Both the position numbers and the translations under genes were made by a program. A DNA stretch of 64,000 nt from an uncultured Planctomycetia bacterium (GTDB taxonomy: Bacteria > Omnitrophota > Gorgyraeia > Pluralincolimonadales > Pluralincolimonadaceae): assembly GCA_964650515.1 (NCBI GenBank), contig CAZYUB010000002.1, positions 12,708-76,707 of the forward strand, given 5' to 3'. Below are positions 328-28,220 of this stretch, in pieces. The notes under the pieces are model-generated. The model saw nothing but the letters and a program-made list of their open reading frames with translations. It was not told the origin of the DNA and did not search any database. Within the stretch, counting starts at the first letter, position 1. The number at the start of each line of letters is the position of its first letter.

Positions 328-351
328 ATGCGAAGAAGAGCGGAGGTTTAC

Positions 352-834: not shown

Positions 835-836
835 AT

Positions 837-4874: not shown

Positions 4875-6520
4875 TGGAAAGAGCGGACTTCGCGATAATA
4901 GTCCCTCCGGCGGGGGTAAGCAATACGGTGTATCCGCCGTACGGGGCGATGTACATAGCCAGCGCGGCAAGGAAGGCGGGGCTAGAGGTCCGCATAATCA
5001 ATGTCGATACAGACAGGATATCGAACGCTGAAGTGATTAAACGGCTGAAGGCGTTCGGGCCGGGGTTTATAGGCATAAGCGGTATAGTCGCGCCGTCATA
5101 TAGATATATCAAATGCCTCAGCACGGATATTAAGTCCGCGATGCCGGAGAGCATACAGATACTCGGCGGAGGGTTATCGAGCGCGGCAGAGACGGTCCTG
5201 AGGAACATGCCGGTGGATTACGTCATAGCGGGCGAAGGAGATTCGGCAATAACGGAACTCATCGGCCGCCTGCGGAACGGGAAGGTTCCTTCGGATGTAA
5301 CCGGGCTTTATTACAGGGATGGCGGAAAATACGTATTCACGGGCGCGAGGAGACTTATCGCGAATATAGATGAATTGCCGTATCCCGCATTCGACCTTGT
5401 CGATATGTCCAGGTATATGCCTGACGGGAAGGAGTTCATAGGGTATTTCATCCAGGATATAAAGGACAGAAGGATAACGGATCCCGGCCGTAAGGGCGGG
5501 ATGGTGACGATACCGACAGGCAGAGGATGCTTCGGGAAGTGCTCATTCTGCTTCAGGGCATACCCGGGGCTCAGGACCCATTCCATGAAATATGTATTCG
5601 ACCTCATAGAATACTGCGCGGAGAAATTCGGCACGAGCTACTTCTCCTTCGGGGACGAATGCTTCGCGCCGAACAAGGAACATAATTGGAGGTTTATCGA
5701 GGAGTACAAGAGGAGGAAGCTCGACCTCGTCTTCAGGATACTCGGCATGAGGGTCGACACGGTCGACAGGGATATATTGCACGCTTATAAAGATATAGGA
5801 TGCTGGATGATCGAATATGGTTTCGAGGCCGGCAACCAGAGGATGCTGAATATCATCGACAAGAGGGTTACTGTGGAGCAGAACAGGCAGGTCGCCCTCT
5901 GGACCAGGGAGGCGGGGATATATACGTCGCCGACGATCGTCCTCGCGATGCCCGGAGAGACGGACAGGACAGTCAACGAATCTATAGGGTTCCTTAAATC
6001 GCTGAACCTCGGTTATAAGCAGTACCAATGGTCGTACGCCCTGCCGATACCCGGCGCGCCGCTATATGATTTCGCGAAGCTGTCGGGCGCCATCAAGGAC
6101 GAAGACGAATATCTCACCTCGCTTGACGGCAAGGTCGCGGGCGCGGGGGTCTTCCATGTAAATCTTACCGATGAGCCGGACTCGACTGTCGCCGGATGGG
6201 CGGACAGGATAAAGGAAGAGGTCGACGCGGATTATTTCAGGAGGGTATACAGGTTCGGGGCGGTTGCCGCGATAGCGCGCCTTTTAAAGAAGATCCGCCT
6301 GCATTTAAGGAGGAAGGACCTGAAGGATGTCATCAAAGGAAAATTGAAGAGCATCTGGCGGGGACATCCGGGCGGGCAAACCTCTGCCCCTGTCGCAGTC
6401 CCGGCAAGGTTCAGGAAGAGAAGTGATATCGTATTCGAGGACCTGATAAAGGGCATGGACGATACGGTCATCAACAGGGATATGGCGCTGAAGAACATAA
6501 ATACGAGGATTGCGTCGTGA
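4874..6520 (+). CDS. B12-binding domain radical SAM protein (class B rSAM; probable sugar C-methyltransferase or epimerase)
   Basis: N-terminal cobalamin-binding Rossmann-like region, then 'TGRGCFGKCSFC' (CxxxCxxC) radical SAM cluster motif. GTG start overlaps the upstream stop. Confidence 0.7.
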   Translation: MERADFAIIVPPAGVSNTVYPPYGAMYIASAARKAGLEVRIINVDTDRISNAEVIKRLKAFGPGFIGISGIVAPSYRYIKCLSTDIKSAMPESIQILGGGLSSAAETVLRNMPVDYVIAGEGDSAITELIGRLRNGKVPSDVTGLYYRDGGKYVFTGARRLIANIDELPYPAFDLVDMSRYMPDGKEFIGYFIQDIKDRRITDPGRKGGMVTIPTGRGCFGKCSFCFRAYPGLRTHSMKYVFDLIEYCAEKFGTSYFSFGDECFAPNKEHNWRFIEEYKRRKLDLVFRILGMRVDTVDRDILHAYKDIGCWMIEYGFEAGNQRMLNIIDKRVTVEQNRQVALWTREAGIYTSPTIVLAMPGETDRTVNESIGFLKSLNLGYKQYQWSYALPIPGAPLYDFAKLSGAIKDEDEYLTSLDGKVAGAGVFHVNLTDEPDSTVAGWADRIKEEVDADYFRRVYRFGAVAAIARLLKKIRLHLRRKDLKDVIKGKLKSIWRGHPGGQTSAPVAVPARFRKRSDIVFEDLIKGMDDTVINRDMALKNINTRIAS

Positions 6521-7563
6521 TAAAGGAAGCACTGCTTGGCGCGGATTACAGGTTCGACGGGGCGCGGGCGCCCGAATCGCTGAGCAGCCCGCAGAATGAG
6601 GCGAGGGAGCTCTTCCTTAAGGAAATCCACGCGAGGGGAAGATACATCGACGTAGAAAGATGCCCTTTCTGCGGGGCGACGGAGTTCACTAAGATATCGG
6701 AAAGGGACGCGAGGGGGCTGCCGTGCGAAGTGGCCGTCTGCGACGCCTGCGGCGGTTGCTTCAAGAACAGGATATTGGACCCGGAGGCGAACAGGTACCT
6801 ATACGAGAAGATATCATACAAGCTTAGAGGCAAGGACCGTTCTCCCGGTGCGGTAGAAGCGCTGTTCAGGAAAAGGATAAAGGAATTCGCCTACCCGAGA
6901 TACGGGTTCATAAGGCATTTCGCCGAACTGGAGCAGGATATGGACCTTATCGCCGAATTCGGCTGCGGCGACGGAGCGAACCTGGTCCCGTGGAGGAATG
7001 ACGGTTTCAGCGTGACAGGCATCGAGTTCGACGGCGGAATGGTCGAGTTCGGCAAAAGCAAGGGGCTCGACCTCGTTCAGGGCGATTTCATGACTCACGA
7101 CCTCGGAGGGGCGAGGCCGAAGCTTATAATACTGTCGCACCTGCTTGAGCATGTATCGGACATGGACGCGGTCTTATCGCGCATACATTCCGTGCTCGAC
7201 CCTTACGGATACCTTTTCATAGAAGTGCCGGGCGTGAAAGGACAGGGCCTTGGCAGGCCGTTATCTTCGTTCGATGTTGAGCACAATTACTATTTTGACC
7301 TCGAAAGCCTTTCGTCGGCGCTGGGGAAGAACAGGTTCTCCGTGGCTTACGGAGACGAATATATAAGGATGATCTGCAGGCCGGCCGGCGCGCAGATCGC
7401 GGGACCGCAGAATAAGAAGGCCGGCGCGCGAAGGTTGTTGGACCTGTTCAGGCGAGAGGAGTCGGGAAGCATCAGGGCGAAGGTCATGAACAGGCTGACC
7501 GGCGCGTACTTCAAGGCGTATTATTCGATATTATCGTCAGGAGTCGGACATGGCAAAGCGTAA
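6517..7563 (+). CDS. class I SAM-dependent methyltransferase with N-terminal Zn-ribbon
   Basis: 'CPFCG...C..CG' zinc ribbon, then SAM motif I 'IAEFGCGDGANL'; GTGA start overlap. Confidence 0.6.
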   Translation: MIKEALLGADYRFDGARAPESLSSPQNEARELFLKEIHARGRYIDVERCPFCGATEFTKISERDARGLPCEVAVCDACGGCFKNRILDPEANRYLYEKISYKLRGKDRSPGAVEALFRKRIKEFAYPRYGFIRHFAELEQDMDLIAEFGCGDGANLVPWRNDGFSVTGIEFDGGMVEFGKSKGLDLVQGDFMTHDLGGARPKLIILSHLLEHVSDMDAVLSRIHSVLDPYGYLFIEVPGVKGQGLGRPLSSFDVEHNYYFDLESLSSALGKNRFSVAYGDEYIRMICRPAGAQIAGPQNKKAGARRLLDLFRREESGSIRAKVMNRLTGAYFKAYYSILSSGVGHGKA

Positions 7564-8287
7564 ATGCAGGACGGTCGCAATGATACCCGCGCGCATGGGC
7601 AGCACGAGGCTCGCTATGAAGAACCTCGCGTTGATAGGCGGGAAACCGATGATCTACTACGCGATAAAGGCGGCGAAGGATTCGGGCGTATTCGACAGGG
7701 TGGTCATAAATTCGGAAGACAGCGTATTCGCGAAGATAGCGAAGCGTTACGGCGCGGAATTCTACCTGCGCCCGCGGGAATGGGCGACCTCGGCCGCGAA
7801 ATCAGATTACGTGGTATATGATTTCGTCAGGAATAACCCGTGCGATGTGGTCGCGTGGGTCAACCCGACGTCGCCGCTGCAGACTGCGGACGAGGTAAGG
7901 GGCGCCATGGAATATTTCGAAAAAAAGAAGCTCGATTCGATGATAACCGTCAAGGACGAGCAGGTCCATTGCGTATATAAAGGAAAGCCGGTCAATTTCA
8001 AGCTGAAGGAGGTCTTCGCGCAGACGCAGGACCTCGTCCCTGTACAGCCCTTCGTATATTCGGTGATGGCATGGAAGACGGGAAGGTTCATGAAAGAGTT
8101 CGAAAAAAAGGGTTTTGCGTTCTTTTGCGGTAAGACGGGGTATTACCCGGTAAGCAAGCTCGCGGGCATAATAATCAAAAGGCAGGAAGACCTGATGGCC
8201 GCGGACCTTATACTGCGGTCTATCTCAAAAAAAGGCGGGTACAAGCTGCGATACGACAAGCTCGCCGTAAAGGGCAGGAGAGGATAA
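7550..8287 (+). CDS. acylneuraminate/CMP-ulosonic acid cytidylyltransferase (CTP_transf_3, NeuA/PseF/LegF-like)
   Basis: 'VAMIPARMGSTRLAMKNLALIGGKPMIYYAIKAA...FDRVVINSED...AKRYGAEFYLRP' matches the CMP-NeuAc synthetase N-terminal fingerprint. Confidence 0.7.
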   Translation: MAKRKCRTVAMIPARMGSTRLAMKNLALIGGKPMIYYAIKAAKDSGVFDRVVINSEDSVFAKIAKRYGAEFYLRPREWATSAAKSDYVVYDFVRNNPCDVVAWVNPTSPLQTADEVRGAMEYFEKKKLDSMITVKDEQVHCVYKGKPVNFKLKEVFAQTQDLVPVQPFVYSVMAWKTGRFMKEFEKKGFAFFCGKTGYYPVSKLAGIIIKRQEDLMAADLILRSISKKGGYKLRYDKLAVKGRRG

Positions 8288-8288
8288 T

Positions 8289-9641
8289 TTGGGAAAGCTC
8301 GCTTCTATCATAATCAGGACAAAGAACGAGGAGCGCTGGATAACGCAGTGCCTGCACGGCGTATTCGAGCAGGAATACAGGGATCTCGAGGTCATACTCG
8401 TGGATAACGAAAGCGAGGACAAGACGCTCGAGAAGGCTGGGCAGTTCAAACTTGCGAAAGTCGTGAAATGCACAGAATACCTGCCGGGCAAAGCCCTCAA
8501 CATCGGAATAAGGGAATCGAAGGGGGATTATATAGTATGCCTCTCGGGCCATTGCATACCCGTGAACTCGAAGTGGCTCGGGAACTTGCTGAAGGACCTC
8601 GATGACCCCGGGGTGGCAGGCGTATACGGCAGGCAGGAGCCGATGAGCTTTACCCCCGATTCCGACAAGCGGGACCTTACGCTCGTCTTCGGGCTCGACA
8701 GGAAGGTCCAGCAGAAGGACAGCTTTTTCCACAACGCGAACAGCGCGATGAGAAAAGAGACCTGGCGGAAATACCCGTTCAATGAGGCCGTCACGAATAT
8801 CGAGGACAGGGTCTGGGCGAAAAAGGTCCTCGAACAGGGATATAAGATAATATATGAGCCGGAGGCGAGCGTATACCATTACCACGGTATACACCAGAAC
8901 AGCAACGAACAGCGCTGCTCGAACGTCGTGAAGATAATGGAGAAGCTCCATGCAGGATTCAGCAGGAAGCCGATAGACATGGAGAAGATGGACGTCGCGG
9001 CGATAATACCGGTAAAGGGCGCGGCGAGGTATGTCGGGGATGCGCCGCTCATCGAATACACGATAAAGAGGGCCAAGGGATCGAAGTACATAAATAACGT
9101 GATAGTCTCCACGGATAACGAAGAGACCGGGCAGTTGGCGAGGAAGCTGGGCGCGAACGTGCCGTTCATAAGGGACCCTTCGCTCTCGAAAGAGAATATC
9201 GACCTCGCGCAGGTCCTGCGGTATACGATGAAGAAGCTCGAGGAGTCGCGCATACTTCCGGATATCGTCGTCCTGCTGGAGGTCACGTTCCCGTTCAGGC
9301 CCGAGGGCCTGCTCGACGACATGATCGCGCAGCTCGCGGAAGGCGGGTTCGACAGCGTCGTCGCGGCGAAGAAGGAGAACAAGGCGATATGGCAGCAGAA
9401 GGACGGTGTCATATCGCAGATAGAGGAAGGCATAACCCCGAGGCAGTTCAAGGAGCCCACGTATATAGAGTTGAAGGGTGTGGGCTGCGTGACGCATCCG
9501 GAGTTCCTCAGGGAAGGCAAGCTCCTCGGTGAGAAGGTGGGCATCTACGAACTGGACAACCCGTATTCGCACCTCGAGGTCAGGAGCGAGGAGGATTATA
9601 AGCTCGCGTCATCGCTCATAAAGGAGGTATTCGGGAGGTAA
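8289..9641 (+). CDS. bifunctional protein: N-terminal GT2 glycosyltransferase fused to C-terminal CTP_transf_3 cytidylyltransferase domain
   Basis: N-terminus 'ASIIIRTKNEERWITQCL...VILVDNESED' (GT2). C-terminus 'VAAIIPVKGAARYVGDAPLIEYTIKRA...VIVSTDNEETGQLARKLGANVPFIRD' (NeuA-like). TTG start with GGAGAGGA RBS. Confidence 0.6.
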   Translation: MGKLASIIIRTKNEERWITQCLHGVFEQEYRDLEVILVDNESEDKTLEKAGQFKLAKVVKCTEYLPGKALNIGIRESKGDYIVCLSGHCIPVNSKWLGNLLKDLDDPGVAGVYGRQEPMSFTPDSDKRDLTLVFGLDRKVQQKDSFFHNANSAMRKETWRKYPFNEAVTNIEDRVWAKKVLEQGYKIIYEPEASVYHYHGIHQNSNEQRCSNVVKIMEKLHAGFSRKPIDMEKMDVAAIIPVKGAARYVGDAPLIEYTIKRAKGSKYINNVIVSTDNEETGQLARKLGANVPFIRDPSLSKENIDLAQVLRYTMKKLEESRILPDIVVLLEVTFPFRPEGLLDDMIAQLAEGGFDSVVAAKKENKAIWQQKDGVISQIEEGITPRQFKEPTYIELKGVGCVTHPEFLREGKLLGEKVGIYELDNPYSHLEVRSEEDYKLASSLIKEVFGR

Positions 9642-11491
9642 TGGCTTTTTCCGGCGTTAAAAAGCTCGTATTCATCAACGGCATAAACGAGGCCGAAGCT
9701 TACATGGATGGCCGTCCCGCGGAAGATGCCGCCGGCGATACGCTCCTGATAGCGATGAACCCGTCTATCCGTGCGCGCCTGAAGAGAAAGGGGTTTCACG
9801 CTGCCGATACCGCGGACTATTTCACGACGGATTCCCATGTGAATACCCTGCAGAAGTCGGATGAGCTTGTCAAATGGTTCGAGGCGAATGCCCGTTTCGC
9901 CGATACCGGGATGGGGGTCAGCAGCGCCTACAGGGATTTCTTCATATACTGGGCAAGGTTCGCAATGCATTACTGCATCTGGGCAATAGATATAGCATCC
10001 GCGGCGATTGAGGCACATAGGCCGGAGGCGGTATGCGCATACGGGGCGGGCGGTAAAGCGGCGGTGTCCAGCCTGTATATCGAGAACAGCGAAGGCTATT
10101 TCGGCCGCCTGGTAAGGGATACCGCGAAGGCGAAAGGCGCAGGATTCATAGACCTAGGGAATGGGGACGCCGAGGCCCGCAGGGAACAGGGACCGCGCGC
10201 AATATACATGAAGTCGCTGGTAAGGTTCATCCTGCAGAACATAAAGTTCTCTTTATGGGAGGCCTCCGTATGGGCAAAGAACATATTCCCGGGCAAGAAG
10301 CCGGTATTCTTCACGACGAGGTTCTATAACCTCGACAAGCTCGCGAAGGAATCGGTAAAGGACGGCAGCGGCAAGAGGCCGGAGATACTGAGGGGGCCGG
10401 TAATATTCACATACGGCCTGTCTGACGCGGTCATAAAACTGTTCGGCGGCGCGTATTCCGCCGCTATAATATCGCAGAAGAAGAACTTCGCGGAGCTCGT
10501 CGAAAAGATGAGGAAAGACCCCTCGGTATTCTCCTACAAGGGGGTATCGTTCGCGGAGGCCGTCTCGGGCAAGATCGAGGATAACCTCGGCGACCATATA
10601 ATGGGCCTTATGCTGTGGACCGTGAAACTCAATGATTTTGTCGACAGGTCGAAGGCGTCATTGTTCGTCTCCAACGGCAACAGGGCGGACGATGTGATAC
10701 TGGCGGAATTATGCGCGAGGAAAGGTGTAAGGACGTTGCTGATAAGCCACGGTTCGCATGTCCGGCCTAAGAACGTCCCTGAGAGGATAGAATGGGGCGA
10801 GCACGGAAGGGCGCTTCTGAGGGCGCCGTTCTCGGATATCGCGCTGCAGACGCCCGTCGCGGAAGGATACGTCGATGCCTTCAAGACGGAAAGCAGGATG
10901 ATCAGGACCGGCCCTCTCATATGGGGAAAACCGGTGGAACGCAGGAAGAGCGGCGTGAGGACTATCGTGCATGCAGGCACGCCGAAGGCGGCGAACAGCT
11001 TAAGGCCGTTCGTCTACGAGACGCCCGATGAGTACATACGCGGCATATGCGAGCTCGCCGCGGCCGTGGAGGGGATACCCAATGCGGCGCTTATCGTGCG
11101 TTTCAGGCCGTCCTCGGATATAGGGATTGAAGATATCAGGGAACTCGTGCCATTTTCCGATAAAGTGAAGCTCAGCACAGACGGGCCTTTTTCGGCAGCG
11201 CTCGGAGCTGCGGACCTGCTGGTAAGCTTCTCATCTACGACGATAGAGGAAGCCCTGCAGAACAGGATACCCGTCCTTCTTTACGGAGGTTCGGGGCGCT
11301 ATATGCACATAGAAGCTGTCGAGGCGGGAAGCAACGGCGAAATGCCGCGGTCGGCGATATACCATGTGAGTAAGGCCGGCGACCTTAGACCTGCAATAGA
11401 GAAGATCCTCGGCCTAGGAACGGACGGTAAACTGTTCGACGAATATATATACCCTGAAAACGAAAGGCAACCGCTGGAGGCGCTATTATAA
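9641..11491 (+). CDS. hypothetical protein with GT-B-like C-terminal half (candidate CMP-sugar or CDP-alcohol dependent transferase)
   Basis: 616 aa. C-terminal 'AALGAADLLVSFSSTTIEEALQNRIPVLLYGG' resembles the GT-B C-domain helix-loop. Paralogous architecture to 837..2669 and 17197..18633. Confidence 0.35.
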   Translation: MAFSGVKKLVFINGINEAEAYMDGRPAEDAAGDTLLIAMNPSIRARLKRKGFHAADTADYFTTDSHVNTLQKSDELVKWFEANARFADTGMGVSSAYRDFFIYWARFAMHYCIWAIDIASAAIEAHRPEAVCAYGAGGKAAVSSLYIENSEGYFGRLVRDTAKAKGAGFIDLGNGDAEARREQGPRAIYMKSLVRFILQNIKFSLWEASVWAKNIFPGKKPVFFTTRFYNLDKLAKESVKDGSGKRPEILRGPVIFTYGLSDAVIKLFGGAYSAAIISQKKNFAELVEKMRKDPSVFSYKGVSFAEAVSGKIEDNLGDHIMGLMLWTVKLNDFVDRSKASLFVSNGNRADDVILAELCARKGVRTLLISHGSHVRPKNVPERIEWGEHGRALLRAPFSDIALQTPVAEGYVDAFKTESRMIRTGPLIWGKPVERRKSGVRTIVHAGTPKAANSLRPFVYETPDEYIRGICELAAAVEGIPNAALIVRFRPSSDIGIEDIRELVPFSDKVKLSTDGPFSAALGAADLLVSFSSTTIEEALQNRIPVLLYGGSGRYMHIEAVEAGSNGEMPRSAIYHVSKAGDLRPAIEKILGLGTDGKLFDEYIYPENERQPLEALL

Positions 11492-11492
11492 A

Positions 11493-13298
11493 ATGAGACC
11501 CGAAAGGAAAGTCAACGCAGTATGGTTCTTCCTGAAACGCTACAAGCGCATCTACGTGACGATGCTTTTAGTCACGATAGGATATTCCGTGCTCGAGAGC
11601 GTGAATATATCGATGTTCCTTCCGCTCTTCACGTCGGTCGTGGGGGAGAGCGCCGAGACGGCCGGAAAGTTCTTCCGGATAATGGAGGGCATCATATCGC
11701 TGATGCCGTTCGGGAACAGGTTCCTGAACATATGCGTGTTGATAGTGGTGCTGCTCGTGGTCAAGGAGATACTCGGATTCGTCAGGCACGTGCTGATCGG
11801 CTACGGGATAGGCAGGGTCATAACCGACGTCAAGGAAGAGATCTTCAACAAGTACGTCAATTCGGATTACCAGTTCTTCCTCGACAACAAGCAGGGCAGG
11901 CTCCTCTATAATATGCTTACGGCCACCGGACGCCTCGGCAGCTGCCTGCAGTTCATACCCGATTTCATAAACGCGATGCTGATGACGGTAAGCATAGGCG
12001 CGCTGCTCTTCTCGATGTCGTTCGGGGTGACGATGGTGCTCCTCGTAGCGGGCCTGGCTTTCAATCTCCTTACGCAGATACTGGCCAAACGCGTCTCTTA
12101 CCACATAGGGACGGAGAGGGCGACCGTCAGCACCGAAGCGAACGTCATAGCGAACGAGGTGATAGACGGGATAAAGCATATAAAGGTCTTCGGTTCGTCG
12201 GAGTTCTGGAGGCATAATTTCGAGCGATCGGTAAGGCGCTTCAAGACCCTCGTCATAGAGGATTTCGTATGGATAGGCATCCCCGAAAGGGTAATGCAGC
12301 TGCTTCCCGCGGCGATGCTTATAATGGTTGCCATATTCTTCAGGCATTTCAGCAAAGGCCCGGACGCCGATCAGGCGTTTTCCGCCAAGATAGCGCTTGT
12401 GGGCGTATATGCGTACGCGTTCTACAGGCTAATCCCTTTCCTGACGTCATTCGGAAGGCTGCGTATGCAGATAATGGGCGCGCTTCCCGAGGTCGAGCTA
12501 TTGTACGACGACCTGCATGAGGACACGAACAGGATCAAGGACGGCAATACGAAGATAGACGGGTTCAGGAAGGAACTGGCGTTCAGGGACGTGAGCTTCA
12601 ATTACAAGGGGAAGAAGGAGATACTTAACGGCGTCTCCTTCAATATCGAAAAGGGCAAGACCACCGCCATCGTGGGCGCCTCCGGAAGCGGCAAGACAAC
12701 GCTGATAAACCTCATTGTAAGGCTCTTCGTGCCTGACGAAGGCAGGATAACCCTGGACGGGACAGACCTGAGGGACATCAAGTACGCCTCGCTTATCAAG
12801 CTCATCGGGATGGTAAGCCAGGACACGTTCATATTCAACGCGACGATAAAGGAGAATATCATCTTCGGCCTTAAGGCAGTGACGCACGAACGGCTTGTCA
12901 ACGCGTGCAAGCTGGCCAACGCGCATGATTTCATAAGCAATTTCCCCGAAGGCTACGAGACGGTCGTCGGCGATAAGGGATTGAAGCTGTCGGGCGGGCA
13001 GAGGCAGAGGATAGCCATTGCGCGCGCGATAATCAGGGACCCGGAGATACTGATACTCGACGAGGCGACGAGCTCGCTCGATTACCATTCCGAGGCGATA
13101 GTGCAGGAGGCCATAAACGAGGTATCGAAGAACAGGACGGTCATAGTCGTAGCGCACAGGCTTTCCACGGTGATCGACGCGGACAAGATAATAGTCATGG
13201 ACAAGGGCAGGATAGTAGAGGAAGGGACGCATGCCGCGCTTATAAAGAAAGAAGGGGTCTACAGGGCTTTATATGAAAGACAGCAAAAAACGATATAA
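11493..13298 (+). CDS. fused TMD-NBD ABC exporter (MsbA/PglK-like, candidate lipid-linked glycan flippase)
   Basis: Six predicted N-terminal TM helices, Walker A 'GASGSGKTT', ABC signature 'LSGGQRQRIAIARA', Walker B 'ILILDEATS', H-loop 'VIVVAHRLS'. Confidence 0.85.
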   Translation: MRPERKVNAVWFFLKRYKRIYVTMLLVTIGYSVLESVNISMFLPLFTSVVGESAETAGKFFRIMEGIISLMPFGNRFLNICVLIVVLLVVKEILGFVRHVLIGYGIGRVITDVKEEIFNKYVNSDYQFFLDNKQGRLLYNMLTATGRLGSCLQFIPDFINAMLMTVSIGALLFSMSFGVTMVLLVAGLAFNLLTQILAKRVSYHIGTERATVSTEANVIANEVIDGIKHIKVFGSSEFWRHNFERSVRRFKTLVIEDFVWIGIPERVMQLLPAAMLIMVAIFFRHFSKGPDADQAFSAKIALVGVYAYAFYRLIPFLTSFGRLRMQIMGALPEVELLYDDLHEDTNRIKDGNTKIDGFRKELAFRDVSFNYKGKKEILNGVSFNIEKGKTTAIVGASGSGKTTLINLIVRLFVPDEGRITLDGTDLRDIKYASLIKLIGMVSQDTFIFNATIKENIIFGLKAVTHERLVNACKLANAHDFISNFPEGYETVVGDKGLKLSGGQRQRIAIARAIIRDPEILILDEATSSLDYHSEAIVQEAINEVSKNRTVIVVAHRLSTVIDADKIIVMDKGRIVEEGTHAALIKKEGVYRALYERQQKTI

Positions 13299-21076: not shown

Positions 21077-21783
21077 CGAGCATTCTCATTATGTGCGGAG
21101 GAAGGGGCGCTAGGCTCGGAGATATCACGAAAAATTGTCCGAAGCCGCTGATTAAGATCGGGGGCGTGACTATACTTGAGCGAAAGATCGGGCATTATAT
21201 GCGAAATGGTTTTAAGGATTTCATTGTCTGTATCGGGTATAAGGCAGATATGATAAAATCTTCATTACGAAAAGGCGGTTTTTCAAGATATTGCAGGTAT
21301 TCAGATTCCGGTGAACCCGCGGGAATACTTAAAAGGCTGTATAACGCTCGAAATATGTTTGATGATAATGTGGTTCTTACATACGGAGACACTTTCGCGA
21401 ATATTGATCTGTCTTTGCTCCTAAAGACGCATATAAAGGAGAAGAATTCCGCCACCATAGTAGTGGCTCCTATCCAGAACCCTTTCGGCCTGGTAGAGTA
21501 TGATAATAATAGGAAAGTTTTGTCGTTCAAGGAAAAACCCGTTCTGAATTATTATATCGGATATGCGGTCATTAATAAATCTGACATAGAAAGAGTGCCG
21601 CAGAAAATGATAGGTATGCCCGACGGTAAAGGACTCGTGGAATTTTATAAATATCTTATAGATAAAGGCAGTCTCGGAATATTTGAATATTCGGGGCCGC
21701 AGATAACGTTTAATACGGAGGACGAGCTTAGGCTGGCTCGCAGGAAAATGACCGCATTCTATACAAGCAGGGAGGAAACTTGA
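21073..21783 (+). CDS. sugar-phosphate nucleotidyltransferase (NTP_transferase family)
   Basis: 'ILIMCGGRGARLGDITKNCPKPLIKIGG' G-x-G-x-R-L nucleotide-binding signature. ATGA overlap start at 21073; the ORF-track start 20950 is an upstream extension. Distinctly AT-richer than flanks. Confidence 0.6.
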   Translation: MTSILIMCGGRGARLGDITKNCPKPLIKIGGVTILERKIGHYMRNGFKDFIVCIGYKADMIKSSLRKGGFSRYCRYSDSGEPAGILKRLYNARNMFDDNVVLTYGDTFANIDLSLLLKTHIKEKNSATIVVAPIQNPFGLVEYDNNRKVLSFKEKPVLNYYIGYAVINKSDIERVPQKMIGMPDGKGLVEFYKYLIDKGSLGIFEYSGPQITFNTEDELRLARRKMTAFYTSREET

Positions 21784-22751
21784 AAAACAAGACGGTATTG
21801 GTGACCGGCGGGGCAGGTTTCATAGGTTCGCATTTAACGAAGAGGCTCGTGAAATCGGGCGCGAAAGTATCAGTAGTCGTGAAATACAAGAGCATAATAG
21901 ATAACGTCAGGCTAGCCCCGATATGGGATGATATTACGCCGATTGAGGCCGACCTGAGGAATATCGATTCAATGAGGCAATTTTCGGGAACTTCATACGA
22001 TCTCATATTCCATCTTGCGGCATACAACCATGTCGGAGACAGTTTCATGCACGTCAGTGAGGCGATTGAATCGAATGCGATGGCAACGGCCAACCTGCTT
22101 GAATTCGCCCCGCAATATAAGAGATTCATATATACATCTTCATCTGAAGTGTACGGAAAGCAAAATACCGTTCCGTTCGAAGAGAGCTTTACCCCGCATC
22201 CTATCTCGCCTTACGCTATCGGTAAATATGCCGGAGAGCTTTACGCGAAGATGAAACGCGAGCAGACAGGAAAAGATATAATCTGCTTAAGGTTCTTTAA
22301 CGTGTTCGGGCCTTACCAGAGCGAGAGGGCCGTAATACCGGAACTTATCATTAAGAGCCTGCGGGGGGAACCAATCAAGACTACCGAAGGGAAACAGACG
22401 AGGGAATTCAATTATGTAGATAATATTGTCGACGCCTTTATCGCCGCAGCAAAATTAAAAAAACCTCCGGAGGAGGTCATAAATATTGGCGCGCAGGAAG
22501 AGATATCGATATCGGACCTGGTGCGCAAGATACATAAGATGTCGGGCTCGCGGTCCAAGCTGATGATAGGAGCGCTTGCCTATAGGCCGACGGAAATTTG
22601 GAGGATGTATTCCAATAATACAAGGGCAAAGGAAATACTCGGATGGCAGCCACGGGTGGATTTTGATGAAGGCCTTAAGAAGACCGTGGAATGGTTCAGA
22701 AGGTATGTAAAACTATTCAGGGAAAAAGACTCGCTTCTTTGCAAGCTATGA
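21780..22751 (+). CDS. NAD-dependent epimerase/dehydratase (extended SDR; NDP-sugar 4,6-dehydratase/4-epimerase-like)
   Basis: '[14 protein letters not shown]' Rossmann, 'YAIGKYAGE' YxxxK catalytic motif. TTG start overlaps the upstream stop, with GGAGGA RBS. Confidence 0.7.
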   Translation: MKNKTVLVTGGAGFIGSHLTKRLVKSGAKVSVVVKYKSIIDNVRLAPIWDDITPIEADLRNIDSMRQFSGTSYDLIFHLAAYNHVGDSFMHVSEAIESNAMATANLLEFAPQYKRFIYTSSSEVYGKQNTVPFEESFTPHPISPYAIGKYAGELYAKMKREQTGKDIICLRFFNVFGPYQSERAVIPELIIKSLRGEPIKTTEGKQTREFNYVDNIVDAFIAAAKLKKPPEEVINIGAQEEISISDLVRKIHKMSGSRSKLMIGALAYRPTEIWRMYSNNTRAKEILGWQPRVDFDEGLKKTVEWFRRYVKLFREKDSLLCKL

Positions 22752-23620
22752 TGAACGTGAAGATAGGGATAACAGGGTCAAGAGGGTTCATAGGTTCCGA
22801 GTTGGCGGGGCATCTTGAAAGCAACGGCTTCAAGGTAGTCAAGCTGGACGGACATACTCGGCAGGAAAGCGGCGAGAATGAAAAGAGCGCCTTGCCGAAA
22901 GGCCTGAAATGGGTACTTCATTTTGCCGCATCGACATCTATTGAGGAGAGCCGGAAAGACCCGTTTCGAACATATAGGAACAATATAGATTCTACTCTTG
23001 CGGCGATTGAAATAGCCAAAGAGTCGAAAGCCGCCTTATTGTTCATGAGTTCATATGTTTACGGAAACCCGAAGTACGTTCCTATTGACGAGGACCATCC
23101 TCTTGGGGCTGTGAACCCATACATGTCGAGTAAGATAATATGCGAGGATATCTGCCGTCAGGTATCCAAGTTAATGTCAATACCTCTTGTCATATTAAGA
23201 GGATCGAATATTTATGGAAAAACCCTTATCAAGGGAAGGCTTATTCCCGATTTGCTGGAATCGGCGAAAAAGGGCGAGCAATTGACGATAACCGACCCTC
23301 TTCCAAGGAGGGATTACCTGTACATAAGGGATTTTTGCGGGTTGATTATCAAAATACTTGATAACGATCCCCCTATACAAGGGACATTCAATGCCGGACA
23401 GGGCCAAAGCTATTCCAACAAGGAAGTTGCGGAAATAGTTAGACGGCTTAGTTCAAATAAATACCCGGTAGCTGTTAACGGTCCGAAAAGGGAGAACGAC
23501 ATTAAGGACGCCTCGATAAACGTTTCTCTTGTAAAGAAGACTTTCATGTGGGAACCGTCATACAGTCTGGAAGACGGGCTGAAGGAACTCATAGGTCATA
23601 GAAAGAGAGGGTTAATATGA
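22748..23620 (+). CDS. NAD-dependent epimerase/dehydratase family (short form; NDP-4-keto-6-deoxyhexose reductase/epimerase-like)
   Basis: 'IGITGSRGFIGSEL', 'YMSSKIICE' YxxxK; about 290 aa. ATGA overlap start. Confidence 0.65.
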   Translation: MMNVKIGITGSRGFIGSELAGHLESNGFKVVKLDGHTRQESGENEKSALPKGLKWVLHFAASTSIEESRKDPFRTYRNNIDSTLAAIEIAKESKAALLFMSSYVYGNPKYVPIDEDHPLGAVNPYMSSKIICEDICRQVSKLMSIPLVILRGSNIYGKTLIKGRLIPDLLESAKKGEQLTITDPLPRRDYLYIRDFCGLIIKILDNDPPIQGTFNAGQGQSYSNKEVAEIVRRLSSNKYPVAVNGPKRENDIKDASINVSLVKKTFMWEPSYSLEDGLKELIGHRKRGLI

Positions 23621-24552
23621 TATCAATAATATCTCCGGTCTACAACGAAGCCGAAAATCTTGAAGAGCTTTGCAACAGGATCACGTCGGCCGTTAAGAAA
23701 GAGGAAGTTGATTATGAGGTCATCTTTGTAGATAACGGAAGCACGGATCGGTCGCTCGATGTAATAAAAAAGCTCAGGAAAAGCGACGCTAAAGTAAAAT
23801 ATGTAAGCCTTTCAAGGAATTTCGGCCATCAGGGAGGTATTGTTGCGGGTCTTTCAAGTGCATCTGGTGACGCGGTAATTTCACTTGACGCCGATCTTCA
23901 GCATCCGCCCGAACTCATACCGGAACTGATCAGGAAGTGGAAGGGCGGTTACTGTGTTGTTTCAACGACAAAGAAATTCAAAGGGGTGAGTTCAGGATTC
24001 AGCCTGTTCCCGAGCAGGATATTTTACAAGCTGATAAGCTCCATATCGGACATCAATTTGACCTACGGAGAATCGGATTATCGCCTGCTCGACCGGAAGG
24101 TGGTTGATGCAGTGTTGGAGATACCTGAAAAGCACAAATTCCTTCGCGGTATGGTCAAATGGGTCGGATTTTCGCAGACATCGGTCGAATACGAGGTAGC
24201 CCAGAGAAAATCCGGCGAATCGAAATTCTCGTTCTGGAATTACGTTAATTTTGCGTTTGACGGGATATTTTCATTCTCTATCGTACCTTTGAGGGTCTTC
24301 CTTTGGTCGGGCATCCTGGTGGCGTTATTCTGCATATTATGGGGAGCGTTCTATTTTGTAATGGGCCTGATCAGCCTTTTTTCCCCCGAGAAGAACCTTT
24401 TGCCGCCCGGCTCTGCCACGATAACGGTCAGCATAATGTTTCTCGGCGGAGTGCAGCTTATCGGGATAGGGATACTCGGCGAGTACCTTGGGCGCGTATA
24501 CCAGCAGACGAAGGAAAGGCCGGATTTTATCGTGAAGGAAAAAGAGCTGTAA
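23617..24552 (+). CDS. GT2 polyprenyl-phosphate glycosyltransferase (DPM1/ArnC/GtrB-like) with C-terminal TM helices
   Basis: 'ISIISPVYNEAENL...IFVDNGSTDRS...VSLSRNFGHQGGIVAGL...ISLDADLQHPPE', then two hydrophobic helices at the C-terminus. Confidence 0.75.
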   Translation: MISIISPVYNEAENLEELCNRITSAVKKEEVDYEVIFVDNGSTDRSLDVIKKLRKSDAKVKYVSLSRNFGHQGGIVAGLSSASGDAVISLDADLQHPPELIPELIRKWKGGYCVVSTTKKFKGVSSGFSLFPSRIFYKLISSISDINLTYGESDYRLLDRKVVDAVLEIPEKHKFLRGMVKWVGFSQTSVEYEVAQRKSGESKFSFWNYVNFAFDGIFSFSIVPLRVFLWSGILVALFCILWGAFYFVMGLISLFSPEKNLLPPGSATITVSIMFLGGVQLIGIGILGEYLGRVYQQTKERPDFIVKEKEL

Positions 24553-24558
24553 TAAGCC

Positions 24559-25401
24559 ATGGGTAATTGCATAGTTTGCGGCAGCAACGATAAAGGCCCC
24601 TTATTCGGAAAAATATCCAGATGCAAGGGGTGCGGCCATATATATTATGGTATAGAGCATACCGATGAAGAGATAGAAAGGCTTTATTCACATGGGTATT
24701 TCTTCGGGGAGGAATACAGCGATTATGTTGCTGACAGGAAAACCGCGAGCAAAAATTTCAGGCTTAGGGTCAAGGTTCTTAAACGGTTCCTGGACGCAAG
24801 CAAGCATAAGCGGCTGCTTGAGATTGGATGCGCATACGGGTTTTTTCTCGAGGAGGCTAAGGAATATTTTACTTCCGTTAAAGGCATCGATGTCTCTAAA
24901 GAGGCTGTGTCATACGCTAAGGACAGGCTGTTTTTGGATGTTGAAAGCGATGAATTCCTTAAACACGATTATAAGGGACAAAAATTCGATTGTGTATGCA
25001 TGTGGGACACCATCGAGCACTTGAAAAGGCCGGACCTGTATATTGAGAAGATCGGGCAGCTGACCGATAAGGGGGCTTTGCTTGCGCTGACGACCGGGGA
25101 TATAGCGAGCTTTAGCGCAAGAATGATGAAAAGTAAATGGCGCCTTATCCATCCACCCACCCATATACATTATTTTTCGGAAAAATCGCTTGCTAAGTTA
25201 TTGGAAAGGGGCGGTTTTAGGATTATTTATAAGTCTCATTGCGGATTTTTCAGGAGCATAGATATGCTGTTTAACAGGACCGTAGGCAAGATCCCGGGAT
25301 TGGGCAGATTATGTTCATTTATCGGCAAAACCGCTATTGGAAGGGTTGATTTTTATGTTAATCTTCGTGATATCATGTATTTGATCGCAAAAAAAGATTA
25401 G
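24559..25401 (+). CDS. class I SAM-dependent methyltransferase with N-terminal Zn-ribbon
   Basis: 'CIVCGSN...CKGCGH' ribbon; 'LLEIGCAYGFF' SAM motif I; 'DCVCMWDTIEHL' motif III. Confidence 0.6.
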   Translation: MGNCIVCGSNDKGPLFGKISRCKGCGHIYYGIEHTDEEIERLYSHGYFFGEEYSDYVADRKTASKNFRLRVKVLKRFLDASKHKRLLEIGCAYGFFLEEAKEYFTSVKGIDVSKEAVSYAKDRLFLDVESDEFLKHDYKGQKFDCVCMWDTIEHLKRPDLYIEKIGQLTDKGALLALTTGDIASFSARMMKSKWRLIHPPTHIHYFSEKSLAKLLERGGFRIIYKSHCGFFRSIDMLFNRTVGKIPGLGRLCSFIGKTAIGRVDFYVNLRDIMYLIAKKD

Positions 25402-25417
25402 TCTAGGGAGGTTAGAG

Positions 25418-27391
25418 ATGTGCGGCATATTCGGGTTCGTGCTAAACAAGGAATCAAAGATGTCGGAGGATGGCATCCGCGGGATGTTGCCTCTGATATG
25501 CAGGCTTTCGGAAAGGCGGGGGAGCGAAGCATCGGGTATCGCGATAGGCTTAGAAGGCGCGATATCATATTTTAAGAAGCCGATGAGGCCTACGCAGCTG
25601 GTCAAGGAAACGGATTTCCGGAAATTTATCGATTCTAAACTGGGACTGGCGGCCTCCGGCGAGTCAAGGATGGTAGAAAAGCCTTTTGCGGTGATCGGGA
25701 ACAGCCGCCTTGTGACGAACGGCACGCAGGCGGTGGCCCAGAACAACCAGCCGGTCGGCGCCGGCCGCGTAGTCGGCGTTCACAACGGGATCATAACCAA
25801 TTCGGACAGGATCCTGGAGAAGTACCCGAATGTCAGAAACGCGGTTGTGGATAGTTCGGATTCAGATACGTCAGTGCTTATGGGGTTGATAAATGAAAAA
25901 TACGCGGAAAGCGGCGATATAAAAAGTGCGCTCGCAGAAACGTATTCTGATATAGAAGGTTCTGCGTCTATTGCATTCATGTGCGAGAACGCGCCGTTTA
26001 TCGCGCTTGCGACAAATACAGGTTCCTTATTCTACAGTAACGATCCAAGTGCACGGATGTTTGTATTCGGTTCAGAGAAATTCATTGTAGAACGGTTCCT
26101 TGCCGGCAGTAAGATAGCATCCGGAAGGGATTTTGTTCCGGTGGTGCAGATCAAGCCGCATACCGCCGCTATAGTGGATATACATTCGGGCGCGCCTGAT
26201 ATTTACGACATGAGAGGGTACCAAAGCGGGAAAAAGATGGTTATCTCGGGCAAGAGATCCGGGTTATACAAGATATTTGATGAAAGCGAATCGAAGGTTG
26301 AATTAAAGCGATGCACGAGATGCATCCTGCCCGAATCATATCCGTTCATTGCTTTTGACGAAGAAGGTGTATGCAATTACTGCAGAAGATATAAGAAACA
26401 GGAATACCTTGGAAAAGCCGCGCTGGAAGAGGTGTTGTCAAAACACAGGTCGAAGGATGGTAAGCCCGACTGCATTTATGGCTTAAGCGGGGGCAGGGAC
26501 AGTTCCTACGGGTTGCATGTGCTTGTAAAAGAATTCGGGATGCATCCTATAGCGTATACATATGATTGGGCGCTTGTTACAGACCTTTCCAGGAGGAACC
26601 AGGCAAGGATCACCGGGAAGCTCGGAGTTGAGCATCTTATCAGAGCAGCGGATATACACGCCAAGAGGAGGCATATACGAAAGAATATCTACGCATGGCT
26701 TAAAAGGCCTAAGCTTGGCATGGTCACGATTTTCATGGCTGGCGACAAAATGTTTTACTACTATGGAAGGCAGTTGCGGAAAGAGACGGGGATTGATTTC
26801 ACCGTATTCGCTTCTGGACAACAGGTGGAGCAGATGGAATTCAAAGTCGGCTATTGCGGCATAAACAAGCAGCTTGTGAATAATACGCGCCTTTACGATT
26901 ACGGAGCATCGGCGAAGATGCGCCTTGCGCTATGGTACGGAAAGGAATTCATGCTTAATCCCTCCTACCTCAACGAATCACTCCCGGACAATATATTCGC
27001 GTTTTATTCCAGTTTCCTGAATAAGGATGACTATCTCTATCTCTATAATTACCTGCCTTGGGATGAAAAGCTGATAGAAAAAACAGTAATAGAACAATAC
27101 GGATGGGAGTCCGACGTTAAGTACGGCGGAAATCAGTGGAGAATGGGCGATGGCCAGACGGCTTTTATTAATTATATATATTATACGATAGGAGGTTTCT
27201 CCGAGTTTGATAATTTCCGAAGCAACCAGGTAAGGGAGGGATGGATTAAGAGGGAAGAGGCGCTTAACCTTGCGGAAAAGGATAACAGGCCTCGAATAGA
27301 CATGCTCCTTGATTTCAGCCAGCTGATAGGTTTTAATCTCGAAGACGTGCTTTTAAGGATTAATTCGATACCAAAGACATATATAAAATAA
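25418..27391 (+). CDS. class-II (Ntn) glutaminase domain fused to WbuX/PseA-type N-acetyl-sugar amidotransferase (PP-loop)
   Basis: N-terminus 'MCGIFGFV' with nucleophile Cys2 and AsnB-like 'GNSRLVTNG'. Middle 'CTRCILPESYPFIAFDEEGVCNYC' matches the WbuX/PseA zinc ribbon. 'SGGRDSS' PP-loop. GGGAGG RBS in the 16-nt gap upstream. Confidence 0.65.
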   Translation: MCGIFGFVLNKESKMSEDGIRGMLPLICRLSERRGSEASGIAIGLEGAISYFKKPMRPTQLVKETDFRKFIDSKLGLAASGESRMVEKPFAVIGNSRLVTNGTQAVAQNNQPVGAGRVVGVHNGIITNSDRILEKYPNVRNAVVDSSDSDTSVLMGLINEKYAESGDIKSALAETYSDIEGSASIAFMCENAPFIALATNTGSLFYSNDPSARMFVFGSEKFIVERFLAGSKIASGRDFVPVVQIKPHTAAIVDIHSGAPDIYDMRGYQSGKKMVISGKRSGLYKIFDESESKVELKRCTRCILPESYPFIAFDEEGVCNYCRRYKKQEYLGKAALEEVLSKHRSKDGKPDCIYGLSGGRDSSYGLHVLVKEFGMHPIAYTYDWALVTDLSRRNQARITGKLGVEHLIRAADIHAKRRHIRKNIYAWLKRPKLGMVTIFMAGDKMFYYYGRQLRKETGIDFTVFASGQQVEQMEFKVGYCGINKQLVNNTRLYDYGASAKMRLALWYGKEFMLNPSYLNESLPDNIFAFYSSFLNKDDYLYLYNYLPWDEKLIEKTVIEQYGWESDVKYGGNQWRMGDGQTAFINYIYYTIGGFSEFDNFRSNQVREGWIKREEALNLAEKDNRPRIDMLLDFSQLIGFNLEDVLLRINSIPKTYIK

Positions 27392-27392
27392 T

Positions 27393-28220
27393 ATGGGCGT
27401 AAACTGCACTATTTGCGGAAACAGCGCGAATACCATCCTCGCAGACGGGACGATAAACCGGTATGACTGCGTATCCTGCGGACATTCATTTTCCGTGATT
27501 GAGCCGTCAAAACAAGTTTCTTACAATGCGGATTACTATGACCTTAAGCATGCAAACTGGTTCAGCAATCCCAATATATGGTTATTCAGGTACATTTTGA
27601 AGCAGGCGCGGATCATCCTGGGCGACGGCAGGATATCGGTGGTCGATGTGGGGTGCGGTAAGGCTGATTTCCTGAAATACGCAAGGATAAAAGACCGCAA
27701 GGTCGATGTTTACGGCATAGACCTGTGCGATAACGATATTCCGGACATAGCGTTCTATAGGGCAGATTTCCTAAAAACGGAGATCAACCGGAAATTTGAT
27801 CTGGTTACAAGCATGGCCTCGATCGAACATGTTGAAGATGTGAATTCTTTTGTCAGGAGGCTGGCGAATCTATCGTCTCAGGGAGGCATTATATCCGTAA
27901 CTACGGATAATGCAGGCGGGATATTCTTTTCATTGTCGAGATTTCTAAAAAAGGCGGGATTGGCAACGCCTTATTACAGCCTTTATGAGCCGGCCCATTT
28001 GCAGCATTTCACGAATAAATCATTGCGGATCCTTCTTGAAAAGAACGGACTTAAGGTCATCTCGCAAAGGAACCACAATTATCCCGCTGAAGCGGTGGAC
28101 ATGCCGGATGCAAACCCGTTCATGAAGATGGTTTATATATTAGGAGTACGCTTCCTGTTTGCCATGCCGTCGAACTTCGGGATCCTGCAGACAGCTATTT
28201 GCAGGAAGGAAAGAAATTGA
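27393..28220 (+). CDS. class I SAM-dependent methyltransferase with N-terminal Zn-ribbon
   Basis: 'CTICGNS...CVSCGH' ribbon; 'VVDVGCGKADFL' motif I; 'FDLVTSMASIEHV'. Confidence 0.55.
   Translation: MGVNCTICGNSANTILADGTINRYDCVSCGHSFSVIEPSKQVSYNADYYDLKHANWFSNPNIWLFRYILKQARIILGDGRISVVDVGCGKADFLKYARIKDRKVDVYGIDLCDNDIPDIAFYRADFLKTEINRKFDLVTSMASIEHVEDVNSFVRRLANLSSQGGIISVTTDNAGGIFFSLSRFLKKAGLATPYYSLYEPAHLQHFTNKSLRILLEKNGLKVISQRNHNYPAEAVDMPDANPFMKMVYILGVRFLFAMPSNFGILQTAICRKERN

Follow-up and report, generated by a model that had tools for sequence, protein, structure and literature searches.

Three zinc-ribbon methyltransferases of a large surface-glycan locus as probable sugar-tailoring enzymes related to TcaB9, MtmC, and KijD1

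The 64,000-nucleotide stretch of contig CAZYUB010000002.1 analyzed here (the window) encodes three proteins, MT1, MT2, and MT3, in which a predicted zinc ribbon precedes a class I S-adenosylmethionine (SAM) methyltransferase domain. We propose that all three are, with good probability, SAM-dependent methyltransferases of one divergent superfamily that act on the monosaccharide building blocks of a surface glycan. This superfamily is in all likelihood related to the C3-methyltransferases TcaB9, MtmC, and KijD1 but without their C-terminal NDP-sugar-binding domain. Annotated with Pfam and NCBIfam over its full length, the window presents what is, judged by gene content, a glycan biosynthesis locus of modular build. 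The locus is probably a very large one devoted to a cell-surface glycan, extending over more than 64 kb on one strand in an Omnitrophota-like bacterium. Two of its modules are considered here: module A (about 837-19559), which contains MT1, and module B (20950-30094), which contains MT2 and MT3.

Results

Three protein families with a conserved ribbon and a class I SAM domain

The three open reading frames (ORFs) named in an initial annotation of this DNA are all present on the plus strand (Table 1). Each product has the class I SAM-binding Rossmann fold, with Methyltransf_23, Methyltransf_11, and Methyltransf_12 above the Pfam gathering score in all three proteins and Methyltransf_25 in MT1 and MT3; the Pfam families put forward in the initial annotation were thus recovered, except for Methyltransf_13. 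The CxxC...CxxC motif described as N-terminal to the Rossmann domain was likewise found in all three proteins, but in MT1 the ribbon begins only at residue 49, past a conserved 48-residue extension. Among the 53 plus-strand gene products of the window that were examined, paired CxxC motifs are present only in MT1, MT2, MT3, and the amidotransferase encoded at 25418, whose own pair lies at residues 299 and 319.

Table 1. Features of the methyltransferase genes and of their neighbors in the window
Feature	Position	Strand	Evidence
MT1, 348-aa Zn-ribbon class I SAM methyltransferase	6517..7563	+	Pfam Methyltransf_23 1.7e-14
MT1 layout: 48-aa N-terminal extension, ribbon, Rossmann domain, C-terminal helices	6517..7563	+	
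MT1 predicted zinc ribbon, C49-x2-C52 ... C75-x2-C78	6661..6750	+	
MT2, 280-aa Zn-ribbon class I SAM methyltransferase	24559..25401	+	
MT2 predicted zinc ribbon, C4-x2-C7 ... C22-x2-C25	24568..24633	+	
MT3, 275-aa Zn-ribbon class I SAM methyltransferase	27393..28220	+	Pfam Methyltransf_23 2.4e-18
MT3 predicted zinc ribbon, C5-x2-C8 ... C26-x2-C29	27405..27479	+	
B12-binding radical SAM enzyme	4874..6520	+	Pfam B12-binding and Radical_SAM; Cx3Cx2C at residue 219
CMP-sugar cytidylyltransferase, PseF/KdsB-like	7550..8287	+	CTP_transf_3 3.8e-22; PseF 7.9e-25
GT2::CTP_transf_3 fusion protein	8289..9641	+	Pfam
Nucleotidyltransferase, NDP-6-deoxy-sugar	20950-21783	+	Pfam
LegB-like 4,6-dehydratase	21780-22751	+	Pfam; NCBIfam LegB 1.2e-57
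SDR epimerase/reductase	22691-23620	+	Pfam
GtrB/ArnC/PgfS-like polyprenyl-phosphate glycosyltransferase (GT2)	23617..24552	+	Glycos_transf_2 2e-32
Class-II GATase::WbuX fusion, N-acetyl-sugar amidotransferase, predicted to form acetamidino groups	25418..27391	+	GATase_6/7
PMT_2/ArnT-like GT-C glycosyltransferase	28199..30094	+	PMT_2 2.1e-11; about 10 hydrophobic segments

The initial annotation had staked its reading on the conservation of the four ribbon cysteines, and they are indeed kept: a regular-expression count found all four in 39/39 full-length homologs of MT1, 117/118 of MT2, and 113/118 of MT3, most of the exceptions in the latter two families resembling N-terminally truncated gene calls. 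The ribbon is therefore not a chance feature. In the MT1 family, C52, C75, and C78 are invariant, C49 is present in at least 90% of the sequences and missing only from one N-truncated sequence (alignment A2), and C81 is also near-invariant. All four cysteines are invariant in the MT2 family, in alignments of 22 and of 76 sequences. In the MT3 family C26 and C29 are invariant, and C5 and C8 occur in every full-length member (alignment A3). The AlphaFold (AF2) models of MT1 and MT2 have mean predicted local distance difference test (pLDDT) values of 87.6 and 87.4, respectively, and the ribbon region is modeled as short β-hairpins in both (MT2 residues 12-30, pLDDT 88-95). One MT1 homolog carries the JGI name "methyltransferase / RPC12/RpoP", a Zn-ribbon COG.

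The families differ in size. That of MT1 is small, with 45 matches in metagenome-assembled genomes (MAGs) of Omnitrophota, Brocadiaceae, and Dehalococcoidales. The MT2 family is very common (1759 matches among the candidates scored), and the MT3 family is moderate in size (203 cluster representatives at E<=1e-30).

Kinship of the three families and their relation to sugar C3-methyltransferases

BLASTP aligns MT2 with MT3 over 250 residues, ribbon included, at 26% identity (E 1e-18), and MT1 with MT2 in the Rossmann part only. Against the MT1 family profile, MT2 scored 99.3% (E 2.3e-20, 250 columns) and MT3, by hhalign, 99.4% (E 1.2e-21, 206 columns), with the ribbons in register in both cases. 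At the level of sequence, these alignments show all three families to be mutually homologous, ribbon included.

In hhalign the MT1 family matched P0177, a protein with both Methyltransf_13 and Methyltransf_14, at 98% (E 1.7e-13); the alignment begins at the first CxxC and covers the Rossmann domain to its end, again with the ribbons in register. A profile search of the PDB with the MT1 family returned MtmC at E 1.3e-15 and TcaB9 at 6e-10, and the MT1 ribbon meets the "CRSC" motif of MtmC. When the MT1 model was compared with the PDB by Foldseek, the top 18 matches were all MtmC, KijD1, or TcaB9. For the MT2 model, query TM-scores were highest with the same proteins (0.63-0.67, about 305-315 columns). 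Normalized to the target (TMt), the Foldseek TM-scores against TcaB9-type chains were only 0.45-0.48.

The alignments pair part of the presumed active site of TcaB9 with residues of the window proteins. H181, Y222, E224, and H225 are, according to the PDB titles, the residues mutated in deposited TcaB9 structures, and we take them to be catalytic. In the PDB profile alignment, where the TcaB9 chain numbering is native + 2, H181 corresponds to MT1 H212, and E224/H225 to MT1 E255/H256; these three MT1 residues are invariant or nearly so in their family, and Y222 is replaced by D253. The equivalent of His225 is invariant in MT2 (H202) and in MT3 (H202), and MT2 H154 and MT3 H146 were recorded beside these in the active-site comparison. 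Upstream of MT2 lies the gene of a LegB-like 4,6-dehydratase, a possible source of a 4-keto sugar such as the TcaB9 substrate.

Several observations weigh against our assignment, the first of which concerns family membership. No match to Methyltransf_13 (PF08421) was found in the full proteins at E<=0.01 or in the isolated ribbons at E<=10, and none to Methyltransf_14 (PF08484) among the Pfam matches of MT1, MT2, and MT3; at E<=10 the isolated ribbon fragments gave just sub-threshold matches to generic Zn-ribbon families. MT1-MT3 therefore fall outside the TcaB9 family proper, and the way in which TcaB9 binds its nucleotide sugar is not simply transferable to them. The sugar C/O-methyltransferase architecture recognized in the initial annotation accordingly stands as homology to the MtmC/TcaB9 type, but not as membership. 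Given the missing Methyltransf_14 match and the shorter chains, the C-terminal sugar-binding domain of TcaB9, which presumably binds the dTDP-sugar, is absent from all three proteins. Second, direct hhalign comparison of the MT2 family with P0177 (88%) covers the Rossmann region alone, so that the ribbon link of MT2 and MT3 to the TcaB9 type runs via MT1, and the placement of MT2 near TcaB9 would follow from structure prediction and from transitive homology through MT1. Third, Glu224 of TcaB9 is Thr in MT2 and Ala in MT3. Zinc binding by the ribbons is predicted from the motif alone. In addition, no flippase was recognized in the window between 20950 and 30094, the extent of module B, and literature searches found no publication on the MT1, MT2, or MT3 families and no characterized member. 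MT1-MT3 are thus best described, on present alignments, as separate, uncharacterized families that appear related to sugar C/O-methyltransferases.

It is very improbable that MT1-MT3 are housekeeping RNA or small-molecule methyltransferases, RlmA-like or UbiG-like, that sit in the locus by chance. Such an origin would agree with their weak similarity to the UbiG, BioC, and RlmA models, which is limited to the Rossmann part and recurs among the PDB matches, and with the name "benzoquinol methylase" that some of the homologs carry in JGI records. Yet the RlmA model of NCBIfam matches MT2 residues 71-123 alone, within the Rossmann part, and neither MT1 nor MT3. The scores lie far under the curated cut-offs (20.2 versus 303 bits for RlmA, PRK11088; 39 versus 103 for UbiG), and an rRNA or quinone methyltransferase assignment was rejected on these grounds. 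Moreover, sugar-gene neighbors are kept across phyla for all three families, and the nearest structures are those of sugar methyltransferases. The rRNA or otherwise unrelated family that the initial annotation had named as the outcome to fear did not emerge, given these scores and the conserved sugar operons.

MT1 lies in a CMP-sugar module

Module A starts with a 610-aa protein without a Pfam match, a GFO/IDH/MocA oxidoreductase, an Ldh_2 protein, a B12-binding radical SAM enzyme (B12-rSAM), MT1, and a PseF/KdsB-like cytidylyltransferase. It continues with a protein in which a family 2 glycosyltransferase (GT2) is fused to CTP_transf_3, a 616-aa protein without a Pfam match, an ABC exporter (11493-13298), an HMGL-like enzyme, a second cytidylyltransferase, and a further B12-rSAM. 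MT1 starts with a GTG that overlaps the stop codon of the preceding gene in the sequence GTGA; GAGGA lies 8 nt ahead of this start, and the cytidylyltransferase gene overlaps the stop codon of MT1 by 14 nt.

The order MT1, cytidylyltransferase, GT2::CTP_transf_3 is invariant in three homolog loci, L009 (Brocadiaceae), L010 (a metagenome contig), and L011 (Omnitrophica, with proteins 86-94% identical), and the GT2::CTP_transf_3 orthologs at this position are 63-87% identical. Both L010 and L011 encode NeuB near MT1. No single gene holds the position just upstream of MT1: the window has an rSAM gene there, L009 a C-terminal fragment of one, L010 the gene of a 259-aa unknown protein, and L011 genes for an aldo-keto reductase and another methyltransferase. 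In L010 and L011 an rSAM homolog does lie upstream of MT1, with inserted genes between. Since the upstream neighbor varies and the downstream one is fixed, the tight partner of MT1 is the activating cytidylyltransferase, not the rSAM enzyme. MT1 thus quite probably belongs to a CMP-(non)ulosonic-acid pathway, in which it would methylate a (non)ulosonic acid intermediate or its CMP derivative.

With an enolate mechanism like that of TcaB9, MT1 could methylate carbon in a keto sugar or 2-keto-3-deoxy acid intermediate, as a C-methyltransferase rather than an O-methyltransferase, a possibility that we regard as real although the smaller one. MT1 has equivalents of H181, E224, and H225, and so the full E/H dyad, it shows the strongest sequence link to the C3-methyltransferases, and the GFO/IDH/MocA and Ldh_2 proteins encoded nearby could make or use keto intermediates. 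However, Y222 of TcaB9 is replaced by Asp, His/Glu pairs of this sort are used by O-methyltransferases too, MT1 lacks the C-terminal substrate-binding domain of TcaB9, and the B12-rSAM genes of the module are already candidates for C-methylation.

Other parts of module A are conserved as well. The L009 rSAM fragment is a 194-aa ORF (L009 9403-9987) that corresponds to the C-terminal third of the B12-rSAM encoded at 4874-6520 (50% identity to residues 335-546) and is a decayed or split gene. The GFO/IDH/MocA oxidoreductase and Ldh_2 genes (2662-4874) and that of the 574-aa HMGL-like enzyme (13273-14997) are conserved components of the CMP-sugar module, and L009 also encodes an HpcH/HpaI aldolase. 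The combination of GFO/IDH/MocA, Ldh_2, and HMGL-like proteins is unusual for nonulosonic acid synthesis, and the product may be a non-standard keto-deoxy sugar acid. Three large proteins have no Pfam match (837-2669, 610 aa; 9641-11491, 616 aa; 16963-18633, 556 aa). BLASTP among the window proteins detected no paralogy among them; orthologs of the 610-aa and 616-aa proteins are encoded at corresponding positions in loci of Brocadiaceae and Omnitrophica. All three are candidate novel transferases or polymerases of the CMP-sugar module.

MT2 and MT3 lie in a module for extracytoplasmic glycosylation

Module B comprises, in order, the genes for a nucleotidyltransferase, the LegB-like 4,6-dehydratase, a short-chain dehydrogenase/reductase (SDR), a GT2, MT2, a 657-aa amidotransferase, MT3, and a PMT_2 glycosyltransferase of the GT-C class. 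The GT2 (23617-24552) matches the NCBIfam models PgfS (4.9e-89) and ArnC (3e-54), both under the equivalog cut-offs. These matches, together with its two C-terminal transmembrane (TM) helices (residues 233-251 and 269-287), identify it as a polyprenyl-phosphate glycosyltransferase of the GtrB/ArnC type. The amidotransferase joins a class-II glutamine amidotransferase (GATase) of the GlmS/PurF type at its N terminus (GlmS-like, 3.4e-14) to a WbuX domain (TIGR03573, 3.5e-38 over residues 297-422). Known WbuX/WbpG systems use, to our knowledge, separate HisH/HisF-like partners. An identity as AsnB was rejected for the 25418-27391 product, which has WbuX in place of an Asn_synthase domain; a genuine AsnB is encoded elsewhere in the window (56034-57926). 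Orthologs of the GATase::WbuX fusion with 58-61% identity occur in homolog loci L006, L007, and L012, and L075 has a protein of the same Pfam architecture.

A gene for a GT2 lies directly upstream of the MT2 ortholog (about 50% identity) in 7/7 homolog loci as well as in the window; the seven come from Cyanobacteria, Acidobacteria (Pyrinomonadaceae), Brocadiaceae, Omnitrophota, and unclassified metagenome contigs. In L001, the Trichocoleus locus L002, L007, and L075, the GT2-MT2 pair is preceded by the three NDP-6-deoxy-sugar genes, which in L008 precede a GT2 and an MT3-like methyltransferase. Together, the dehydratase, nucleotidyltransferase, reductase, GtrB-like GT2, and Zn-ribbon methyltransferase are found in Cyanobacteria, Acidobacteria, Brocadiaceae, and Omnitrophota. 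The series GATase::WbuX, MT3, PMT_2 is kept in the window, L006, L007, and L012, and in the window the ATG of MT3 lies 1 nt past the stop codon of the GATase::WbuX gene. Elsewhere the arrangement differs. In L075 the place of MT3, between the amidotransferase and PMT_2, is taken by a Wzx-like (Polysacc_synt) protein. The order in L008 is GT2, a methyltransferase, the MT3-like one (39% identity), GtrA, and YfhO, and that in L013 is GT2, a YdjC-like deacetylase, MT3, a second methyltransferase (216 aa), and a PMT_2-like protein; the GATase::WbuX-MT3 pair is absent from both. L013 belongs to a Nomurabacteria MAG (LBZW01000006.1) assigned to the candidate phyla radiation (CPR); its MT3 ortholog is 45% identical, and it also has orthologs of the rhamnose-type genes of the window, those for a nucleotidyltransferase, an epimerase, and an isomerase, which are 55-69% identical and similarly ordered. 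Its gene content suggests horizontal transfer or mis-binning.

The initial annotation had placed each methyltransferase directly after a tailoring enzyme. This is so for MT1, which follows the rSAM gene, and for MT3, which follows the amidotransferase gene, whereas MT2 follows the GT2 gene. As a rule it gives way to the neighbors that are conserved: GT2 before MT2, the cytidylyltransferase after MT1, and GATase::WbuX before and GT-C after MT3.

Three-component extracytoplasmic glycosylation relies on a synthase of polyprenyl-phosphate sugars, a flippase, and a transferase of the GT-C class (PMC11127046). Module B has, as far as its predicted products go, the anatomy of such a system with its own donor-sugar pathway and tailoring enzymes.

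Proposed pathway and stage of methylation

The following pathway, from its substrates to the order of its steps and the kind of atom that is methylated (O, N, or C), is an inference. An NDP-6-deoxy-hexose(NAc) would be made by the products of the nucleotidyltransferase, dehydratase, and SDR genes and then tailored through methylation by MT2, conversion of an N-acetyl to an acetamidino group by GATase::WbuX, and a second methylation by MT3. The tailored sugar would be placed on polyprenyl phosphate by the GtrB/ArnC-like GT2 and flipped, and the PMT_2 GT-C enzyme would transfer it to a periplasmic acceptor. Methylation at the nucleotide-sugar stage is slightly favored over methylation at the lipid-linked stage because of the TcaB9-like fold and of two fusions within the MT3 family: the representatives P0182 (569 aa) and P0249 (623 aa) carry an N-terminal NAD-dependent sugar epimerase/reductase (SDR) domain. 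These fusions, known from gene calls alone, would tie the MT3 family to nucleotide-sugar enzymes.

Methylation could instead occur once the sugar is on polyprenyl phosphate, at the cytoplasmic face of the membrane, with MT2 (and MT3) acting in analogy to ArnD and the epimerases that tailor undecaprenyl-phosphate sugars; we consider this rather unlikely. The GT2-MT2 adjacency in 7/7 loci, with start and stop codons that overlap or nearly abut, would suit such a stage, as would the missing C-terminal NDP-binding domain of TcaB9 and a conserved, moderately hydrophobic C-terminal insert in MT2 and MT3 (MT3 residues 247-265, Kyte-Doolittle 1.49; MT2 residues 231-260, low pLDDT). In L013 a YdjC-like deacetylase stands between GT2 and MT3, as ArnD does after ArnC, and tailoring of undecaprenyl-phosphate-linked sugars has precedent in three-component systems (PMC11127046). 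On the other hand, the order of reactions cannot be read from that of genes, neither MT2 nor MT3 has a predicted TM segment, the nearest structures bind nucleotide sugars, and in two proteins of the MT3 family the methyltransferase is joined to a soluble NDP-sugar enzyme of the SDR type. It is improbable, though not negligibly so, that the widespread GT2-MT2 cassette is an undescribed three-component variant in which a monosaccharide is methylated on polyprenyl phosphate and, in some lineages, amidinated and methylated again. If it were, these short TcaB9-like enzymes would have exchanged a nucleotide-binding domain for a lipid-facing insert, and the product would be the methyl- or dimethyl-deoxyhexose decorations of anammox-type S-layers.

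The acceptor atom of MT3 deserves separate mention. MT3 may be an N-methyltransferase that acts on the acetamidino (or a free amino) group to give an N-methylacetimidoyl sugar, as PtmH (Cj1325) does after PtmG (Cj1324); this is conceivable but falls short of being likely. In Campylobacter PtmG/PtmH and Legionella pneumophila ORF28/ORF8, an amidotransferase that forms the acetamidino group has as its partner a methyltransferase, which N-methylates the acetimidoyl group (PMC3766260). Besides this precedent, the 1-nt spacing between the GATase::WbuX stop and the MT3 start, the retention of the pair in four loci, and the L013 slot before MT3, where the YdjC-like deacetylase is another N-acyl-modifying enzyme, all point in this direction. 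Conversely, the L008 MT3 ortholog has no N-modifying enzyme nearby, L075 has the amidotransferase without MT3, and no PtmH-type NCBIfam match appeared.

Glycoproteomics of the anammox S-layer has described methylated HexNAc, dimethyl-deoxyhexose, and new variants of nonulosonic acid, whose fragment masses are 261, 275, and 289 (10.1101/2020.12.03.409086). Anammox genomes carry MT1 and MT2 orthologs, and these sugars are consistent with modules of the kind described here without being a test of them.

Radical SAM genes and other features of the window

The initial annotation counted five rSAM enzymes and, together with the three methyltransferases, eight potential methylation activities. We find four genes with B12-binding and Radical_SAM domains and a Cx3Cx2C motif (starting at 4874, 15710, 19556, and 43544), and no fifth in the Pfam matches or in a Cx3Cx2C scan of all six frames. 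No methyltransferase domain beyond those of MT1-MT3 was found among the annotated window genes, so that four rSAM enzymes and three methyltransferases give at most seven candidates for methylation; moreover, B12-rSAM enzymes need not be methylases. The four B12-rSAM genes are paralogs, 22-28% identical to each other and spread through the locus.

The whole window is a single plus-strand gene array with tight packing and many overlaps, and GC skew and AT skew are positive along its entire length. The region of MT2 and MT3 (window 20001-30000) is a low-GC island of 0.45-0.48 between flanks of 0.53-0.56, and lesser dips occur at 1-4000, 34001-36000, and 40001-42000. This pattern suggests that the locus was put together from cassettes of differing origin.

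The three-component theme appears to recur at 49246-51896, 35243-37066, and 38542-42114. A second GtrB-like GT2 (49246-50184) has two C-terminal TM helices and 39% identity to the 23617-24552 protein, and its gene is followed by that of a 700-aa membrane protein. Two more candidate PMT_2-like GT-C genes start at 35243 and 40762, and a gene at 39230 encodes a 511-aa TM-rich protein without a Pfam match. Two proteins join a nucleotidyltransferase to a GT2, the activating enzyme to the transferase: GT2::CTP_transf_3 (8289-9641) and NTP_transferase::GT2 (42096-43547).

Discussion

Taken together, MT1-MT3 are in our estimation probably ordinary sugar-tailoring enzymes of a known sort, set in conserved sugar-building modules, although their families are uncharacterized. 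The functional assignment is well supported, and it does not describe a new kind of system; the mechanistic question is that of the nucleotide-sugar versus the lipid-sugar stage. In mostly uncultured bacteria such as Omnitrophota, anammox Planctomycetes, and many cyanobacteria, methylated and amidinated sugars shape the chemistry and hydrophobicity of the cell surface and its recognition by phages and antibodies. Thousands of genes now labeled "class I SAM-dependent methyltransferase" or "benzoquinol methylase" could be better annotated, and the fixed gene partners (GtrB-like GT2, WbuX-type amidotransferase, GT-C, and CMP-sugar synthetase) turn this annotation into testable substrate hypotheses.

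Comparison with known systems

RlmA(I), the 23S rRNA m1G745 methyltransferase, combines a Zn-binding N terminus with a class I domain. MT1-MT3 resemble it in having a Cys4 ribbon before the class I domain and in total length, but their genes sit amid those of sugar biosynthesis. The closer likeness is to TcaB9, MtmC, and KijD1, NDP-hexose C3-methyltransferases in which a Cys4 ribbon also stands ahead of the class I SAM domain; equivalents of TcaB9 H181 and H225 are kept in the window methyltransferases. The differences are in size, with 275-348 aa against the 405-426 aa of the PDB chains (60-130 residues shorter), in sequence, with 14-19% identity, and in context, the window genes belonging to surface-glycan loci and not to antibiotic deoxysugar clusters.

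The amidotransferase of 25418-27391 and MT3 recall PtmG/PtmH and ORF28/ORF8 of L. pneumophila in the pairing of an amidotransferase gene with a methyltransferase gene. This likeness is one of gene pairing; unlike PtmG, the window amidotransferase has a fused class-II glutaminase, and whereas the two known pairs act on CMP-legionaminic acid, the window pair lies in a 6-deoxy-hexose/polyprenyl-phosphate module.

Module B as a whole is like the GtrA/GtrB/Gtr*, ArnC/ArnT, CsbB/GtcA/YfhO, and Streptococcus Pgf systems in its combination of a GT2 with two C-terminal TM helices and a GT-C enzyme. The GT-C is PMT_2 in the window and YfhO in L008, and the flippase of related loci is GtrA (L008) or Wzx-like (L075). 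Classical three-component systems start from a ready-made UDP-sugar and lack methyltransferases; module B differs from them in its dedicated NDP-6-deoxy-sugar pathway, its one or two Zn-ribbon methyltransferases, and its amidotransferase.

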